A stretch of DNA of 64,000 bases from Ktedonobacterales bacterium (GTDB lineage Bacteria; Chloroflexota; Ktedonobacteria; Ktedonobacterales; JADMIN01), in assembly GCA_030167145.1 (NCBI GenBank), contig CP126532.1, forward strand, positions 1,857,052 through 1,921,051, read 5' to 3'. Position numbers and translations under genes: made by a program. Numbering within the stretch: the first letter of the stretch is position 1; each line of letters starts with the position of its first letter. Of the stretch, positions 3,317 to 30,662 are shown one piece after another. The notes beneath the pieces were generated by a model. The model worked only from the letters and a program-made list of their open reading frames with translations, did no database searches and was not told the DNA's origin.

Positions 3317-4483
3317 GTGCGGATGGATCGGGGCCGATTCCCTCGCGACGGATACGAGCATGACGACGACTCGTATAATACCTACGACCACGACGCCTAT
3401 GCGTCGTCGCAACACAACGGCTATACCGGCGAAGATGGCGCCTATTCGTATGAGAGCGCGGCCTACACGGGCTACGACAACGCCTATGACACCAGCTACA
3501 GCGCCGAGGGGCGCGCGCTGCTGCCCATAGACGAAGACGCGAACCTGCCCGCGCTGGCAAGTAGCCAGATGCCGGTGACGCCGGTGATCATCCCTGGTAG
3601 CGGCGTCTCGATGGGCACGCCGTTCATCAAGCGGCGCGAGCGCCCGCTGACGCTGCGGCTGACGGTGCTGGCGCTGACGGCGTGCGTTCTGGTCTCCGGC
3701 CTCTTCGCGGTGACGCCGCTGGGCAGCAGTGCCGATTCGGGCATCAGCTCGTTCCAGGCGCTTTCGGGCGCGGTGGTCTGGAAAAAAACAGTCAGTTACC
3801 ACTGGTACATCGCGCAGTCCGGCGACACCCTCGAATCCATCTCCACGGCGCAACACGTGCAGATTGGCGGCATCTACGAGCTGAACGGCCTGTTCCTCGG
3901 CCAGGAAGTGCAGACGGGCATCGCGTACAAGATTCCCGACGACCCCTTCTATGGCAAGGGCTTCAAGCCGCGCACGCTGATTACGCCTGGGTCAGGGGCG
4001 ACGACCTTCGGTGATAGTCCGTGGACCTCGATTGCGGGCACGCCGACCCCCGAACAACCCTGCTCACCGAACGGCAACGGCAACCCCACGGCCTACAAGC
4101 TGGTCTCGCCGAATCCCGGTTCACACTGGGTGCGCGGCTTCACCTACTATCACAATGGCATAGACATCGCAGCGCCACAGGGAAATAAGGAGCGTGCGGC
4201 GCAGGCCGGGCAGGTGATCTGGGCGGGCTGGGATTTCTACGGCCTGGGCTATTCGGTGAAGATCAACAACTGCAACCACATCTCGACGATCTACGGGCAT
4301 ATGATTCAGATCATCGCCAAGGTGGGGCAGTTTGTGCAGCCGGGCGACATCATCGGCCTGGAAGGCTCGACCGGCTTCTCGACTGGCCCGCACCTGCACT
4401 TCATGGTGCTGTGGGATAACGTGCCGGTTGACCCGATGCCGTACTTCGGCTACAGCATCTGCAAAGCGACGGGCACCTGCTAG
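3317..4483 (+). CDS. LysM domain-containing M23 family metallopeptidase
   Basis: GTG start preceded by GGGAGGG. It has a TM segment (LTLRLTVLALTACVLVSGLF) and a LysM-like YIAQSGDTLESISTAQHVQIGGIYELNGL. The M23 motifs are HNGIDIAAP, IYGHM and GSTGFSTGPHLHF. Confidence 0.9.
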   Translation: MRMDRGRFPRDGYEHDDDSYNTYDHDAYASSQHNGYTGEDGAYSYESAAYTGYDNAYDTSYSAEGRALLPIDEDANLPALASSQMPVTPVIIPGSGVSMGTPFIKRRERPLTLRLTVLALTACVLVSGLFAVTPLGSSADSGISSFQALSGAVVWKKTVSYHWYIAQSGDTLESISTAQHVQIGGIYELNGLFLGQEVQTGIAYKIPDDPFYGKGFKPRTLITPGSGATTFGDSPWTSIAGTPTPEQPCSPNGNGNPTAYKLVSPNPGSHWVRGFTYYHNGIDIAAPQGNKERAAQAGQVIWAGWDFYGLGYSVKINNCNHISTIYGHMIQIIAKVGQFVQPGDIIGLEGSTGFSTGPHLHFMVLWDNVPVDPMPYFGYSICKATGTC

Positions 4484-4505
4484 CGGGTGAGCGGGTGAGC
4501 GGGTG

Positions 4506-4569
4506 AGCGGGCGGTTGAAACCGCGCCTACATGGCCTTCGGCCACAAAACCCGCCGTCGCGGGTTGGGC
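4506..4569. repeat. Mosaic intergenic repeat, short form
   Basis: AGCGGGCGGTTGAAACCGCGCC...CCGCCGTCGCGGGTTGGG shares its end modules with the long copies. It is preceded by GCGGGTGA x3 (4482-4505). Confidence 0.7.
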
Positions 4570-4656
4570 ATCGAGAAGGGTACATGAAGCGGCCAGTCTC
4601 CAGATGGGGGGCTGGCCGTTCTCGTTGTCTCCTTGCGCTGAGGGCGGGAATGTGTT

Positions 4657-4670
4657 ATCAATTAAGTGAT
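4657..4670. promoter_or_regulatory. Candidate ArsR/SmtB operator (imperfect palindrome)
   Basis: ATCAATTAAGTGAT is self-complementary at 12 of 14 positions. It is an AT-rich patch about 35 nt upstream of the arsR-family start at 4702. Confidence 0.4.
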
Positions 4671-4701
4671 GACTAAATCGTTTTTCCAATGAGGTAGCTA
4701 G

Positions 4702-5154
4702 GTGAAGACTCATGGAACAGCCAGCGCGCGCAGCCAGATGAGCGCGCAAGCGTGTACGCTGCCAGGGGCGGACCCAGAGCGGGTGGCACGTGGGCGCGCG
4801 GGGCTGTTGGACGAAGATAGCGCCTTCGCGCTGGCCGAGACGTTTCGGGCGCTGGCCGACTCGACGCGGGCGAAGATTCTGTACGCGCTGCTGCGCCAGG
4901 AACTCTGCACCTGCGATCTGGCGGCGATCATCGGCGCGTCGGAGTCGTCGGTCTCGCAGCACCTGCGGATGCTGCGGCAGTTGCGGCTGGTGAAGAGCCG
5001 CCGCGAGGGCAAGCGCGTCTTCTACGGGCTGGACGACCTGCACATTCGCGTGCTGCTGAGCGTGTGCCTGAGCCATGTGCGCGATACGGAGCGGGCGCAT
5101 GAAGGGCTGGAAAAGGTGCTGACCTTCTTCGATGTGGATGGAGAACCCGCCTGA
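4702..5154 (+). CDS. ArsR/SmtB family metal-responsive transcriptional repressor
   Basis: Winged-HTH signature LADSTRAKILYALLRQELCTCDLAAIIGASESSVSQHLRMLRQLRLVKSRREGKRVFY. It is the first gene of a metal efflux operon. Confidence 0.9.
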   Translation: MKTHGTASARSQMSAQACTLPGADPERVARGRAGLLDEDSAFALAETFRALADSTRAKILYALLRQELCTCDLAAIIGASESSVSQHLRMLRQLRLVKSRREGKRVFYGLDDLHIRVLLSVCLSHVRDTERAHEGLEKVLTFFDVDGEPA

Positions 5155-25452: not shown

Positions 25453-26049
25453 ATGCCACGCCCGAATGTGAGCGAAGAACGCAAGAATCAAATATTGGAA
25501 GCCGCGATGACGGTGTTCGCGGAGCGCGGCTTCCACGAGGCGCGCATGGATGACATTGCCCAGAAATCGGGGTTGAGCAAGGGCGCGCTGTATTTGTATT
25601 ACAAGAGCAAAGATGCGATCATCGCCGCGATGTTGCGCTATTTCTTCACGCTTGCCATGAAGAATCTGCGCCATATGCACACCTTCGAAGGTTCTGTCAG
25701 TCAGCAATTGCTGGACTACACGCGCCGTATTGGCGCGGAGGCCGAGCGCATGGCGTTCTTCACGCCGATTGCGTGGGAGTTCTATGCCGTGGCGGGGCGG
25801 CAGAAAAGCGTGCGACTCCTCTTGAAAGACTATTTCGCGGAGTACCGCCAGACGCTGGCCGTGCTGATCCAGAAAGGCATTGACAGCGGAGAGTTCCGGC
25901 AGGTGAACGCCGAGACGGTAGCGACGACGGTGGCCAGCCTGCACGAGGGGCTGGCGCTGCTCAGTGTGGTGGATCCCAAGGCAGTGAATTGGAGTGAGCA
26001 GGGTATGGAGGCCGTGCGGCTGCTGCTCGACGGCCTCAGGACGCGCTAG
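25453..26049 (+). CDS. TetR/AcrR family transcriptional regulator
   Basis: ILEAAMTVFAERGFHEARMDDIAQKSGLSKGALYLYYKSKDAI is the TetR HTH. The start at 25453 (MPRPNVSEERK) is likely. Confidence 0.9.
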   Translation: MPRPNVSEERKNQILEAAMTVFAERGFHEARMDDIAQKSGLSKGALYLYYKSKDAIIAAMLRYFFTLAMKNLRHMHTFEGSVSQQLLDYTRRIGAEAERMAFFTPIAWEFYAVAGRQKSVRLLLKDYFAEYRQTLAVLIQKGIDSGEFRQVNAETVATTVASLHEGLALLSVVDPKAVNWSEQGMEAVRLLLDGLRTR

Positions 26050-26345
26050 TTCGTGTGATGACTGACAATTTCGAAGATGGAGAGGGATGGTTCCGCGCCC
26101 GCTCCGCGAAAGAACAGCACACCACCAGGGGTTTCGACAGAGCGGCGATATTCATCGAGCGCGTCGCGGCTGTGCCAGACTGAGATACCGCGCCATAGTG
26201 TCGGATCATCCGCGCTCTGCACGAGGAACGTCTGGACCATCTGTGAGGGCAGGCGGCTACTGCTCTGGTTGAATGCTGACTGAAGCGTGGGCCACTGCTC
26301 ATGCGCGACATGCGCTTCGAGAACGGTCATCACCATGTTCGCCAT
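26046..26345 (-). CDS. Small ABM/Dabb-fold-like protein (tentative)
   Basis: ATG at 26345 (MANMVMTVLEAHVAHEQW). About 99 aa; the size and pattern resemble antibiotic-biosynthesis-monooxygenase-like proteins. Confidence 0.5.
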   Translation of the reverse strand: MANMVMTVLEAHVAHEQWPTLQSAFNQSSSRLPSQMVQTFLVQSADDPTLWRGISVWHSRDALDEYRRSVETPGGVLFFRGAGAEPSLSIFEIVSHHTN

Positions 26346-26711
26346 ATTCTTCTTCTCTGTATTTCTTCTCTCGCGAGTGATGGGGGCAGTACAGGACGTG
26401 TGTACGATGATGCGCGCTACGGATGAGGCACTAAAAGGGAGAAGAGTGGGGGCCGAGATAGATGCGCCGCGATCAACTTTTCGCGCGGCACTAGGGATTA
26501 TACACGGCACCGGTGTACGATGCGGTAATGGGTATTGCGTTCACTTACGTATGCGGAATCCAACATACGCGGTCAAGTGAGAGGGTAGGCCCGCGCGAAA
26601 GCGCGTAGCGCGGGGCGATGCGAAGGCAGGCACGGTTGTTGCTGAGGTGGTGGTGATGCGCCTGGGCATGTCTGCGAGGGCCGCGATGCGAACAACAGGA
26701 GGGTTACGGAT

Positions 26712-26969
26712 ATGGTGCGAAACGTGCTGCGCTGGAGCGACCAGACGGGTTGCTATGAAGGGGTGACCAGCGATCTGAAGCATGTGGTGCGCGTACCAGC
26801 GCGGGAGATTGTGGAACGTATGCTGGCGCTGGCACATCATCCGTCCACACCCGATGCCCAGGGGGAGACGGTGAGCATGTGGGATGCCATGGTGCGCCTG
26901 CTCTACCCCGATACCTGGTACGAGACGGCGGCGAACAACCCATCGGTGGAGGTGGCGGATTGGAAGTAG
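26712..26969 (+). CDS. Small hypothetical protein
   Basis: Strong RBS AGGAGGG 8 nt upstream of the ATG. 85 aa, no recognisable domain. Confidence 0.45.
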   Translation: MVRNVLRWSDQTGCYEGVTSDLKHVVRVPAREIVERMLALAHHPSTPDAQGETVSMWDAMVRLLYPDTWYETAANNPSVEVADWK

Positions 26970-27044
26970 GAGCGTTGGCGGCGTTCCGTAGGGTCGGGAT
27001 GTCGCCGCCACGTGTGTTCACCGGGAGAGGAGACGCAGAAAGGG

Positions 27045-27872
27045 CTATGCTGGCCGACAATCGGAGCAGGGATGATAGCCAGCGAGGATGGCGGCCTTTT
27101 CCGAGGCGAAGTAGATGCGATGCTCGTCGGCTTCCCGGTGGCCGTGGCCGCAGGATGGGTAGCAGAAGGCGTGGGTGGTGGTAGTGCCGAAGTAGCGCAC
27201 GCCCTCGCGTGCGAGTTCTTCGAGCGTATCGGGGTCGGCGCCTTCCGCCGTCAGCATCGCGCGCTTGGCATCATTCCCACCCAGCGAATACTGGCCGAGG
27301 TGGCCGTCGCTGCGGACGACGCGATGGCAGGGAATCAGGATGGGCACGGGATTGTGGGCCAGCGCGGTACCCACCGCACGCACCGCTTTGGGCGAGCCAA
27401 TCTCACGCGCGATCCAGGCATAGGGGCGCACCTCGCCGCGCGGAATCTCCAGCGCCTTGAGCAGCACGGCGCGCTCGAACTCTGAGAGGCCGCGCAGATC
27501 GAAGCGCAGTTGGGGACGAGCTTCACCACGAATGCAGCTTTCCAGGGTGTGTACCAGGGTCGCGGGTGGCTCTTGCGCCGGATAGATTGGCCCGCCCATC
27601 TGCTCGCGGAATGCCTGCTCGAACGCTGCATCGGAGATGGCGCGTGTGACGGTGGAGATACCACGCGGATTGTAGGCGACGTAGACCAGCCCGAGGGGAG
27701 TGGCCAACTCAAAATAGGCGTCGCCGATGCCGAGCGTCTTCATTACCGCTGAGCGCAGTGTCGGTGGCGCTTCGACCGCGCTGAGCGCACGCAGATTGCT
27801 TACCAGGAGCCGCGCTTGATCCAGCGTCGTATTTCCTGACGTATCCTGTGGTGTATCTCGTGTCTTGTTCAT
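27045..27872 (-). CDS. ogt: Methylated-DNA--protein-cysteine methyltransferase (Ogt/MGMT) fused to a C-terminal Ada-type Zn-binding-like domain
   Basis: MGMT active site IPCHRVV with the preceding HTH (YAWIAREIGSPKAVRAVGTALAHNP). The C-terminal FCYPSCGHGH...YFASEKAAILAGYHPCSDCRP is Cys-rich and Ada-N-like. ATGA overlap with the upstream sigma gene. Confidence 0.85.
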   Translation of the reverse strand: MNKTRDTPQDTSGNTTLDQARLLVSNLRALSAVEAPPTLRSAVMKTLGIGDAYFELATPLGLVYVAYNPRGISTVTRAISDAAFEQAFREQMGGPIYPAQEPPATLVHTLESCIRGEARPQLRFDLRGLSEFERAVLLKALEIPRGEVRPYAWIAREIGSPKAVRAVGTALAHNPVPILIPCHRVVRSDGHLGQYSLGGNDAKRAMLTAEGADPDTLEELAREGVRYFGTTTTHAFCYPSCGHGHREADEHRIYFASEKAAILAGYHPCSDCRPA

Positions 27873-28486
27873 CCCGCTACCTCTTCCAGGCGTCTGCGCG
27901 TCACCAGCGCCTCGCGTAACAGCCGCGTGCCTCGATGGACATTCGCTTTCACGGTGCCGACCGGCTGACCCAGCGTTTCGGCAATCTCGCAGTAGCCCAC
28001 GCCCTCGACATGGCGTAGCACCACGGCGATGCGGTAGCGCGGTGGCAACCCGGCGATCACCATCGCCAACTCACGGCGCTGCTCAGCCGCTTCGGCGGCA
28101 ACCTCTGGCCAGTCGTGCGCGTCGCCGACGATTTGCAGATGCGGTGTATCGTCGTCGTCATCGTCGAGCGGCGTCTGTGCGGGCTGGTGGCGGCGCACGC
28201 GATTGCGATAGATATTGAGCGCAATGGAGAAGAGCCAGGGCCGGAGCGCGAGGGCGCAGACCCGCGCCGCTTCATAGGTTTGCAGCGCGCGGTAGGCGCG
28301 CACGAAGGCATCCTGCGCGATCTCCTCGGCATCCTGGGGGCTGCCGGAGATGCGTAGGGCGAAGGCGAAGAGCCGGTGCTGGTAGGCCAGCACCACTTGC
28401 TCGAAGCCCGCGTCCAGCCGCGTCGCCAGCGCCGCCGTCAGAGCGTCATCGGTCACGTTACCCGGCCTTCCTGTTGGCATGTTCAT
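27869..28486 (-). CDS. ECF-type RNA polymerase sigma-70 factor
   Basis: ATG at 28486 (MNMPTGRPG). Region 2 is QDAEEIAQDAFVRAYRAL...RPWLFSIALNIYRNRVR. Region 4 is VVLRHVEGVGYCEIAETLGQPVGTVKANVHRG. Confidence 0.9.
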   Translation of the reverse strand: MNMPTGRPGNVTDDALTAALATRLDAGFEQVVLAYQHRLFAFALRISGSPQDAEEIAQDAFVRAYRALQTYEAARVCALALRPWLFSIALNIYRNRVRRHQPAQTPLDDDDDDTPHLQIVGDAHDWPEVAAEAAEQRRELAMVIAGLPPRYRIAVVLRHVEGVGYCEIAETLGQPVGTVKANVHRGTRLLREALVTRRRLEEVAG

Positions 28487-28529
28487 CGTCGCATACAGTA
28501 GAACACATGGCGCGGGGGAATGGTTGCAC

Positions 28530-29855
28530 ATCCCCTCGTGTATCGTCCAAGCGTATATCCTGGCAAGTGATGATGTCATAGACCCCATGGCGAAAGCCAG
28601 GGGCTTGTAGCTACCCCGCGCGGGGCGCCACGTCTGGCGGTATGACTGCCGCCCGGCTGCGAACACGAATGTTCACCGCCGCGTTCAGGTCGGCATGGGC
28701 GGAGAACCCACACACGACACAGAGGAACCTGGCTTGCGACTTCCGATTCGCCTTCGCACAATGCCCACAGCGGCTACAGGTCTGACTCGTGTACGCTGGG
28801 TCTACCAAAACCACACGCACGCCTGCCAGTTGCGCCTTGTAGGCAATGAAGGCGCGCAACTGCGCGAAGGCCCAGGAATGCAGCACTCTCCGCTGGCGTT
28901 TGCCCGTAACCGTTTGCTTCGCGCGGATCCGTTCGCGGATGTGCTTGAGGTCTTCAAGCGCAATCCCACGCGAAGTGCCTTTTGCCGTGCTGACCATGGC
29001 CTTCGAGAGACAATGATTCACATCCTTGACGAAGCGCCGTTCGCGTCCGCTGCGCTTCTTGAGCAGCCGTTTCGCGCTCTTGGTGCCCTTCTTCTGCAAC
29101 TTTTGGCGGAAGCGGCTGTAACGCGCGCGCACTTGATTGACATGGGCATGCTTGGGGCCGGTGGAGGAGTTCAAGAACTCGCCATCACTGGTGGCTGCCA
29201 GGGTAATAATGCCCAGGTCAACGCCCAAGAAATCGTCTGGCTCAGTGGGCGTGGGTTCGGGCGTGTCCACGGTCACCGCCAGAAAGAAGGTGTCGCTGCG
29301 CTTGCGGTAGAGCAAGTCCGCTTGCCCGCGTATGCGCGCCAGCATCCCTGCGGCATAGGCTCCGAACCGCAAGGGCAGTTCAATGCGTCCATCCAAGGTC
29401 AACAGCGAGACACGATCAATGCGCGGGAAGGAGCAGATACGCTCATCATAGACCATCGCGCCATGCGGGCGGAAACGTGGCTGAATCGTCTTGTCGCGTT
29501 TGTACGCTTCGCTGACTTTGCTAATGGCGCGAATGGTCATCTGCGACGACAGCCCAAACCGCTCGCGGATGTCGTAGTAGACCAGCTTTTGCAACTCGAC
29601 TTTGTTGGCGCACTGCTCGCTAAACGCCGTCGCCGCGATGGCATTGCAGGCGGCGTTGAACGCCTCCAGTGTCCGCAACAGGGCGGCATGCTGGTCGGCG
29701 GTCGGGGCCAATTTGACGAGCAGTGTTTGTTTCATACCGACAGTGTATCACGATTGAGGATACACATCAATTGGATTGTGCCGCCTGTCGGCGGGGCGCA
29801 TTCCCCCCCATGCCTGAAGGCAGGGCATCCGGCGCCGATTTGGGTGAAAGGACAG
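28530..29855 (-). mobile_element. IS200/IS605-family (IS1341-like) TnpB-only element, boundaries approximate
   Basis: It contains tnpB only, with no Y1 tnpA nearby. Subterminal hairpins lie upstream of tnpB (GTGTATC..GATACAC at ~29747-29769; GCCGCCTGTCGGCGG at ~29782-29796). A hairpin AAGCCCCTGGCTTTCGCCATGGGGT lies just past the tnpB stop. Confidence 0.6.
28611..29735 (-). CDS. tnpB: TnpB (IS605 OrfB family RNA-guided endonuclease/transposase accessory protein)
   Basis: MKQTLLVKLAPTADQHAALLRTLEAFN at the N-terminus. RuvC and Zn-finger region VVLVDPAYTSQTCSRCGH...FLCVVCGFSAHADLNAAVNI. Confidence 0.9.
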   Translation of the reverse strand: MKQTLLVKLAPTADQHAALLRTLEAFNAACNAIAATAFSEQCANKVELQKLVYYDIRERFGLSSQMTIRAISKVSEAYKRDKTIQPRFRPHGAMVYDERICSFPRIDRVSLLTLDGRIELPLRFGAYAAGMLARIRGQADLLYRKRSDTFFLAVTVDTPEPTPTEPDDFLGVDLGIITLAATSDGEFLNSSTGPKHAHVNQVRARYSRFRQKLQKKGTKSAKRLLKKRSGRERRFVKDVNHCLSKAMVSTAKGTSRGIALEDLKHIRERIRAKQTVTGKRQRRVLHSWAFAQLRAFIAYKAQLAGVRVVLVDPAYTSQTCSRCGHCAKANRKSQARFLCVVCGFSAHADLNAAVNIRVRSRAAVIPPDVAPRAG

Positions 29856-29858
29856 ACG

Positions 29859-30662
29859 ATGAGCGCCACCATTGTCTTTATCCACGGCGCGTGGATGACG
29901 CCATTGTGTTGGGAACCGTTTGTTGGCTATTTCCAGCAGCAGGGCTACACCTGCGTCGCCCCGCCCTGGCCGTACCGGGATAAATCAGTTGAGGAGTTGC
30001 GGAGCAATCCGCCCGCTGCCCTGGCAGGGCTGGGCGTCGCCGAGATCGTTGACCATTACGCGCGCATCATCAGCGCGCTCGATGAGCCACCGATCTTGAT
30101 CGGGCATTCGTTCGGCGGGCTGTTCGTACAGATGCTGCTCGACCAGGGATTGGGGCGCGCAGGTGTCGCGCTCGATCCCGCGCCGCCCAAGGGTGTCCCC
30201 GCCTTCAAACTGACAGCCATCAAAGCGCTCTCAGGCGTCCTGACGACATGGATGGGCTGGAAACGCATCCTACGGATGTCGCTGCAAGAGTTTCAGTATG
30301 CTTTCGTCAACACGCTGCCGCCGAGCGAGCAAAAGGCGACATACGAGCGGCAGGTGGTGCCAGAAACCGGGCGCATCTTCTTTCAAGCCGCCCTCGCGCC
30401 ACTGAACCGCCATAGCGCCATTCGGGTGCGCTTCGACAACGGCACGCGGGCGCCACTGCTACTCATCGCCGGGGCAGCGGATAACATCGTGCCGGCGAGC
30501 GTGGTGAAAGCCAATCATGCGAAATACAAACACTCACCCGCGCGGACCGACTTCAAGCTGTTCCCTGGCCGCACCCACTGGCTCATCGCCCAAGACGGCT
30601 GGGCAGAGGTCGCGGGCTACGCGGCGGACTGGCTGCGTCAATTGCCGGGGACGCCCGCGTAA
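29859..30662 (+). CDS. Alpha/beta hydrolase
   Basis: ATG at 29859 (MSATIVFIHGAWMTP). Nucleophile elbow GHSFGG. The upstream part of ORF 28695..30662 is antisense to tnpB and is discounted. Confidence 0.8.
   Translation: MSATIVFIHGAWMTPLCWEPFVGYFQQQGYTCVAPPWPYRDKSVEELRSNPPAALAGLGVAEIVDHYARIISALDEPPILIGHSFGGLFVQMLLDQGLGRAGVALDPAPPKGVPAFKLTAIKALSGVLTTWMGWKRILRMSLQEFQYAFVNTLPPSEQKATYERQVVPETGRIFFQAALAPLNRHSAIRVRFDNGTRAPLLLIAGAADNIVPASVVKANHAKYKHSPARTDFKLFPGRTHWLIAQDGWAEVAGYAADWLRQLPGTPA

Follow-up and report, generated by a model that had tools for sequence, protein, structure and literature searches.

We analysed a 64-kb window (the whole stretch of DNA, 64,000 nucleotides (nt), from contig CP126532.1 of a Ktedonobacterales bacterium, phylum Chloroflexota) and found on its minus strand an extracytoplasmic function (ECF) sigma factor gene translationally coupled to the gene of a fusion protein, which joins an O6-methylguanine-DNA methyltransferase (MGMT) to an Ada-type zinc-binding domain (Ada-Zn). 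The pairing is conserved across three phyla, and we hold with good confidence that it forms a dedicated ECF-controlled alkylation-repair module. That the fusion protein would moreover be a single-use anti-sigma factor, bound to the sigma factor through its N-terminal helices and released by alkyl transfer, is a reading whose chances appear to us evenly balanced. The more precise version, a "suicide" anti-sigma factor in which irreversible self-alkylation at the MGMT cysteine and/or at the zinc-bound Ada-type cysteine would free the ECF sigma factor, is tentative, the chances lying slightly against it. The locus comprises the following features:

28523 to 28528, minus strand: −35 element TGCAAC of a predicted ECF-type promoter (two-block motif search).
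28501 to 28506, minus strand: predicted −10 element GTGTTC, after a spacer of 16 nt and 14 nt before the ATG at 28486 (motif search).
27869 to 28486, minus strand: ECF (group IV) sigma factor gene, 205 amino acids (aa) (Pfam, NCBIfam, orthologues).
27869 to 27872, minus strand: ATGA stop/start overlap, translational coupling (direct reading of the sequence).
27045 to 27872, minus strand: gene for the 275-aa MGMT/Ada-Zn fusion protein (Pfam, AlphaFold2, Foldseek).
27726 to 27872, minus strand: N-terminal extension, aa 1-49, candidate sigma-binding module (AlphaFold2, cross-phylum motif).
27240 to 27725, minus strand: O6-alkylguanine-DNA alkyltransferase core, N- and C-domains, aa 50-211 (PF01035, Foldseek).
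27327 to 27329, minus strand: codon of the alkyl-acceptor Cys182, in PCHRV (direct reading; invariant in all aligned homologues).
27051 to 27203, minus strand: Ada-type Zn(Cys)4 domain, aa 224-274 (PF02805, N-Ada alignment, Foldseek).
27162 to 27164, minus strand: codon of Cys237, aligned with Ada Cys38, the methylphosphotriester acceptor (alignment).

The first gene of the pair is enclosed in a minus-strand open reading frame (ORF) at 27869-28666. Read from the ATG at 28486, its product holds Sigma70_r2 at residues 32-101 and Sigma70_r4_2 at 138-186 according to Pfam, with no other domain, and scores 90.6 bits against the NCBIfam model TIGR02937 (sigma70-ECF), for a cut-off of 42.9. The top named NCBIfam models are of the SigW, SigE, and SigH types, and each of them scores below its own cut-off. 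With sigma2 and sigma4 only, a length of about 200 aa and neither region 1.1 nor region 3, the protein is an ECF (group IV) sigma factor. A reading made from the letters alone, hereafter the sequence-only reading, had placed such a gene here with its start at 28486; the sigma factor is indeed present, and it is the start that is uncertain, with an alternative GTG at 28456 preceded by GGAAGG and with relatives that begin about 10 codons further in. The same reading had claimed an ATGA overlap with an MGMT-type gene, which we recover at the junction (GGGATGAAC), where the sigma TGA (27871-27869) overlaps the ATG of the fusion gene (27872-27870) by 4 nt. Such coupling by a 4-nt overlap is typical of stoichiometric sigma/anti-sigma pairs.

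The second gene had been described as three parts, i.e., an N-terminal extension of about 45 aa, an MGMT domain with the PCHRV motif, and a Cys-rich module resembling the N-terminal part of Ada, and this division holds by Pfam, alignment, AlphaFold2, and Foldseek, the extension being slightly longer (about 49 aa, two predicted helices ahead of the MGMT part). Pfam places DNA_binding_1 (PF01035, the MGMT C-domain) at residues 131-211 (E 8.5e-29), with PCHRV at 181-185, and Ada_Zn_binding (PF02805) at 224-274 (E 8.8e-9). The AlphaFold2 model of the fusion protein alone reaches a mean pLDDT (predicted local distance difference test) of 89 and a pTM (predicted template modelling score) of 0.79. 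Searched with Foldseek, residues from about 50 to 215 of this model match best the C-terminal part of Ada (C-Ada, 1sfe, E 1.3e-12) and the Mycobacterium tuberculosis OGT (4wxc, E 3.5e-12), with template modelling (TM) scores on the target of 0.78-0.80; judged by family match and predicted fold, the core is a complete two-domain O6-alkylguanine alkyltransferase (MGMT/Ogt). The tail matches the N-terminal part of Ada (N-Ada, 1u8b) over 51 columns with a root-mean-square deviation of 2.2. In a phmmer comparison with PDB chains, fusion residues 223-274 align with N-Ada residues 24-74, FCYPSC standing opposite FCRPSC (Ada Cys38 and Cys42) and PCSDCRP opposite PCKRCQP (Cys69 and Cys72). By this alignment all four zinc ligands of the Escherichia coli Ada protein, Cys38, Cys42, Cys69, and Cys72, are matched, by Cys237, Cys241, Cys269, and Cys272. 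Across the aligned homologues the MGMT cysteine never varies, nor do the four zinc cysteines in any protein that has the Ada-Zn domain.

We then compared the fusion protein with one genome per species, which gave 48 loci from Ktedonobacterales, Chloroflexia, Thermomicrobiales, Anaerolineae, Herpetosiphonaceae, Acidimicrobiia, Streptosporangiaceae, and Eremiobacterota/Vulcanimicrobiota. An ECF sigma factor gene lies directly upstream in 46 of these 48 species-level genomes (Chloroflexota, Actinomycetota, and Eremiobacterota). In 45 of them tblastn identifies it as an orthologue of the window sigma, on the same strand and with 38-61% identity, and at locus L042 a more divergent ECF sigma factor occupies the same upstream place. 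The two loci devoid of a sigma gene (L053 and L054) are also those where the protein is a plain MGMT, lacking both the extension and the Ada-Zn domain. The 4-nt ATGA/GTGA overlap recurs in 28 of 52 gene pairs, and most of the others are spaced by −1 to +6 nt. Metagenomes hold thousands of such pairs, two homologue searches having returned about 8,000 and 4,800 sequences. Conserved adjacency in other genomes, whose absence the sequence-only reading had named as a refuting point, is thus present, and it goes far beyond chance. One variant, L037 (Chloroflexota), keeps the sigma gene, the promoter, the extension, and the MGMT part, and its ORF (3971-4534) stops before the Ada-Zn domain. At L047, a single frame without a stop (3443-5026) runs through both genes and could be taken for a natural sigma-MGMT fusion of the "Rosetta stone" kind. 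We rejected this candidate because the Ada-Zn part is frameshifted in the same record and the close relatives L029, L030, and L033 have a normal stop at the sigma/MGMT junction; the run-together frame is probably an assembly error in a long-read metagenome-assembled genome (MAG).

A search for ECF groups with conserved MGMT neighbours, which the sequence-only reading had advised, is positive. A 2022 review of non-canonical ECF sigma factors lists "6-O-methylguanine DNA methyltransferases (ECF122)" among the groups that have no cognate anti-sigma factor and whose conserved neighbours are possible regulators, and gives as model WP_057211282.1 from Cellulomonas sp. Root930, with an "unknown mechanism" and a citation of Casas-Pastor et al. 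2021 (PMC8999054). This review was the only paper in our search to name ECF122, which is absent from the main text of the article it cites. The group is reportedly also attributed to Huang et al. 2015. Like ECF122, the window has a sigma factor without a canonical anti-sigma factor and with a conserved 6-O-methylguanine DNA methyltransferase neighbour, and we found orthologous pairs with the same promoter motif in Actinomycetota. The review example, however, is actinobacterial (Cellulomonas), whereas the window pair comes from Ktedonobacterales (Chloroflexota). A homologue search started from an actinobacterial sigma factor returned only Acidimicrobiales and related MAGs, and no Cellulomonas, among the 120 matches listed. 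On gene context, by which it is assigned, the window pair is a Chloroflexota member or a close relative of the ECF122 neighbourhood and no new class. At that level the sigma-MGMT idea is not new, since ECF122 is listed with exactly such a neighbourhood. The main texts consulted on this point contain no mention of the Ada-Zn domain, the extension, the promoter motif, or the AlkA and oxygenase partners described here. A literature search brought up no experiments that connect alkylation repair with an ECF sigma factor, and a 2023 review of alkyltransferases names fusions with EndoV and with histone-like proteins and no sigma link.

To find the promoter, we took the 220 nt that precede each of 44 sigma genes, enumerated the two-block words in them, and compared the counts with those in shuffled sets. 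TGCAAC followed by GTGTT occurs in 21 of the 44 regions, where the best shuffled word pair reaches at most 11. With a spacer of 15 to 17 nt (TGCAAC-N15-17-GTGTT), the motif is found in 37 of 54 related loci, nearly always as a single copy, on the coding strand and upstream of the sigma gene. The 64-kb window has one occurrence (28502-28528, minus strand) for 0.05 expected and no second copy; it sits between a TnpB gene and the sigma gene, and it answers, as the predicted promoter TGCAAC-N16-GTGTTC, the earlier suggestion that an ECF promoter motif be identified upstream of 28486. Because the motif resembles ECF promoters ("AAC" in the −35, "GTT" in the −10) and its presence co-varies with that of the sigma factor, we infer that the operon is autoregulated by its own sigma factor. 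The 40 nt upstream of the −35 element are not conserved (at most 0.3 bit over 35 aligned promoters) and therefore give no sign of an activator site of the Ada-box type. Rfam has no match on 25500-30500, and scans of the region for sigma70 promoters and terminators gave nothing informative. Among loci L029-L052 (Actinomycetota and some Chloroflexia), no more than 7-9 nt separate the −10 element from the GTG start of the sigma gene, and this short distance suggests leaderless sigma transcripts in these groups. Two loci carry a second motif copy, pointing the opposite way and back to back with the first (L016, 3087-3113, and L011, 80-106, both minus strand). The one in L016 faces an ORF that resembles, by eye only, an EamA-type transporter, and hints at further regulon members. 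At L012, a second copy on the opposite strand faces an alkA-like gene.

The operon variants tie the module to alkylation repair beyond MGMT, because they carry either AlkA or an oxygenase of the PF09859 family, which Pfam describes as an "oxygenase, catalysing oxidative methylation of damaged DNA" and which we term AlkB-like. The order sigma, MGMT-AdaZn, AlkA is found in several Ktedonobacterales (L001, L005, L007, and L010). Two actinobacterial genomes (L031 and L035) have sigma, MGMT-AdaZn, and the PF09859 oxygenase, the last joined by a further 4-nt overlap, and a Vulcanimicrobiaceae genome (L044) has the oxygenase first, followed by sigma and MGMT-AdaZn. No canonical anti-sigma gene (HxxxCxxC) lies beside these operons, nor any zf-HC2 match. 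The only true gene of the zinc-binding anti-sigma (ZAS) type that we found, in L024, neighbours a separate, second sigma gene. The window itself holds no alkA, nor a pseudogene remnant of it at E ≤ 1e-3, whereas close relatives have alkA right after MGMT-AdaZn; compared with L001 (6000-6995), the window has at 26046-27045 about 0.7-1 kb without a family match in place of alkA.

Given these data, we propose the following mechanism. The sigma factor would transcribe its own bicistronic operon from TGCAAC-N16-GTGTTC, and in other genomes the same promoter would also drive alkA or the PF09859 oxygenase. The co-translated MGMT-AdaZn protein would be both repair enzyme and sigma regulator. At rest, its two-helix extension would keep the sigma factor bound, acting as a minimal anti-sigma module of the CnrY kind. 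Once Cys182 has irreversibly taken up an alkyl group from O6-alkylguanine, and/or the zinc-bound Cys237 one from a methylphosphotriester, the fusion protein would be altered or destabilised and the sigma factor freed. Newly made fusion protein would then repair the DNA and re-capture the sigma factor, and the response would scale with damage.

Several observations favour the fusion protein as the brake. Its anti-sigma-like place and its coupling to the sigma gene persist, although the other repair genes vary from genome to genome, and an autoregulated sigma factor needs a negative regulator, for which we see no other conserved candidate. In E. coli Ada, methylphosphotriester transfer to Cys38 is mainly a signal and not a repair necessity; the retention of the Ada-Zn domain without a helix-turn-helix (HTH) domain therefore argues for a regulatory role. 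Finally, the sigma-linked proteins carry an extra two-helix segment whose second half aligns with residues 50-71 of the anti-sigma factor RsiW.

This segment is the candidate contact with the sigma factor. In the AlphaFold2 model it forms two helices (14-31 and 37-47) separated by an EAPP loop, and the first MGMT beta-strand starts at residue 51. A motif common to several phyla, L.xL..L....AP..L...V, runs through it, with Pro36 in at least 90% of the sequences. A profile search of the PDB gave four matches at E ≤ 10, which is chance level, and RsiW is among them: the second half of the extension aligns with it over 22 columns with 41% identity (hhalign P 7.8e-4, probability 25%). The structure of SigW with RsiW shows sigma2 in contact with the L4' loop and helix alpha4', and CnrY inhibits its sigma factor with the equivalent of alpha3'-alpha4' only (PMC5358783). 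Contact with both sigma4 and sigma2 by as few as two anti-sigma helices is general (PMC7406223). The stretch of RsiW aligned here is that of L4'/alpha4', so that the extension weakly resembles, on a statistically weak alignment, the sigma2-binding helix of anti-sigma factors, and its predicted two-helix segment could cover sigma4 and sigma2 like that of class II, CnrY-like anti-sigma factors. However, it has neither a transmembrane segment nor a zinc motif and is fused to a cytoplasmic enzyme instead of a membrane sensor; it also differs from class I anti-sigma factors (anti-sigma domain (ASD)/ZAS), which are defined by a four-helix domain.

Some points weigh against an anti-sigma role. Taken by itself, the RsiW likeness is insignificant (hmmsearch E 1.8, and the hhalign probability already given). 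Pfam at E ≤ 10 finds no family match for three extensions, and a phmmer search of the PDB with the window extension as a single sequence returns nothing. The extension has no four-helix ASD and no zinc or His/Cys (HxxxCxxC) motif. That the window sigma recognises the promoter motif is our inference. The authors of the ECF classification caution that neighbours may be regulators or targets, which neighbourhood alone cannot distinguish (PMC7826278), and for ECF122 the mechanism is given as unknown, with no member studied experimentally (PMC8999054).

In another explanation, rather unlikely in our view, the sigma factor governs an alkylation-repair operon of which MGMT-AdaZn is merely the main product, and sigma activity is set elsewhere (for example through transcription from a different promoter, proteolysis, or an unlinked regulator). 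The extension would in that case have a part in repair, such as oligomerisation or binding to DNA, and MGMT proteins do bind DNA cooperatively via their N-terminal parts (PMC10779285). That ECF122 is placed among the groups without a cognate anti-sigma factor, the warning of the classification paper that neighbours may be targets, and the lack of a significant match between the extension and any anti-sigma family all agree with it. Against it, three phyla share the overlap and the position right after the sigma gene, whereas the other repair genes are missing or found in different places. A methylphosphotriester-acceptor domain alone has little repair value, the extension is found in the sigma-linked proteins and is absent from the two unlinked ones, and an autoregulated sigma factor that nothing restrains would stay permanently on.

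The likeness to Ada opens another way, in which the protein would activate instead of restrain. The fusion protein has both acceptor modules of E. coli Ada, namely the PCHR alkyltransferase and a Zn(Cys)4 domain in which Cys38 has its counterpart, and alkA and an AlkB-like oxygenase are associated with both systems. The order of the modules is, however, reversed, with MGMT first and the zinc domain C-terminal, and in place of the AraC-type HTH of Ada a separate ECF sigma factor supplies promoter recognition. Pfam finds no HTH_18/AraC domain in the fusion protein, which scores 95 bits against the Ada equivalog model NF011964, below its cut-off of 345. Methylated Ada contacts the sigma70 and alpha subunits of RNA polymerase. 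By analogy with its contact with sigma70 region 4, the self-methylated fusion protein may bind more tightly to the sigma-RNA polymerase holoenzyme and/or to DNA and stimulate transcription, the ECF sigma factor replacing the AraC-type DNA-binding domain. Beside these known contacts, this reading can appeal to the Zn(Cys)4 switch domain, recognised here by the N-Ada alignment, which is the part that turns Ada into an activator, and the data on co-expression and conservation fit it as well as they fit the suicide anti-sigma factor. We nevertheless consider it improbable: the fusion protein lacks an HTH/AraC domain, no conserved "Ada box" appears in the aligned promoters, L037 has the sigma gene, the extension, and the MGMT part without the Ada-Zn domain, and ECF sigma factors normally need no activator.

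A fortuitous or local adjacency, created for example by the TnpB/IS605 OrfB gene directly upstream (28611-29735), is extremely improbable and is excluded by the comparative data, in which the same pair, junction, and promoter motif recur in 46 of 48 genomes, the majority of which lack TnpB.

The single-use anti-sigma reading can also be set beside the zinc-thiolate systems. RsrA is the zinc-thiolate anti-sigma factor of sigmaR; thiol modification inactivates it, and its own ASD senses oxidation or electrophiles directly and reversibly. The two are conceptually alike in that an ECF sigma factor would be set free when a zinc-bound cysteine is covalently modified. By contrast, the cysteines of the fusion protein belong to DNA-repair domains, and their modification would be irreversible.

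Concerning the surroundings of the locus, the TnpB/IS605 OrfB gene upstream of the sigma gene is on the minus strand and is recognised by Pfam through OrfB_IS605 and a Cas12f1-like TNB domain. It ends 83 nt upstream of the −35 element, and its 3' flank has no match to an Rfam RNA family. Beyond it lies a molybdopterin oxidoreductase gene whose product is 77% identical to its counterpart upstream of the L001 operon; in this syntenic relative, no TnpB separates the molybdopterin oxidoreductase from the sigma gene. Downstream of the pair, the window carries a weak ABM-like ORF, a TetR gene, and ABC transporter genes. Four other loci have, in the interval from the conserved promoter to the sigma gene, short ORFs that include a hydrophobic segment. 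This segment is C-terminal in L019 (3024-3356) and L021 (1910-2152), which have the motif "[ST]ESHWRW" in common, and N-terminal in L001 (4138-4356) and L027 (3206-3430). These ORFs may encode real membrane proteins of the operon or may be chance ORFs in GC-rich DNA. Two loci of Chloroflexia/Thermomicrobiales, L024 (2462-3436) and L026 (2399-3358), have at this place a PF00296 luciferase-like monooxygenase.

In the adaptive response to alkylation, a textbook example, the repair protein also acts as a transcription factor; what is understood of this response comes, to our knowledge, almost entirely from Proteobacteria and Firmicutes and their Ada/AraC design. Our results suggest that large soil phyla may use instead an ECF sigma factor together with a protein that bears both Ada acceptor cysteines and no DNA-binding regulator domain. 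The phrase of the sequence-only reading, "an alternative wiring of the adaptive response", is a fair description, since the pair is conserved over three phyla, is translationally coupled, has an ECF-type promoter, and is accompanied by AlkA or PF09859 partners. The promoter motif, the operon variants, and the conservation of the extension give concrete ways to probe an ECF group listed with a mechanism unknown. If the fusion protein is indeed the anti-sigma factor, irreversible alkyl transfer from damaged DNA would be a new input in ECF signalling, and this would be an undescribed anti-sigma mechanism. The number of lesions repaired would be converted directly into sigma molecules freed, i.e., a damage-counting switch, of possible use in synthetic circuits. 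It would also mean that an adaptive response without an Ada/AraC-type activator exists across Chloroflexota, Actinomycetota, and Eremiobacterota.

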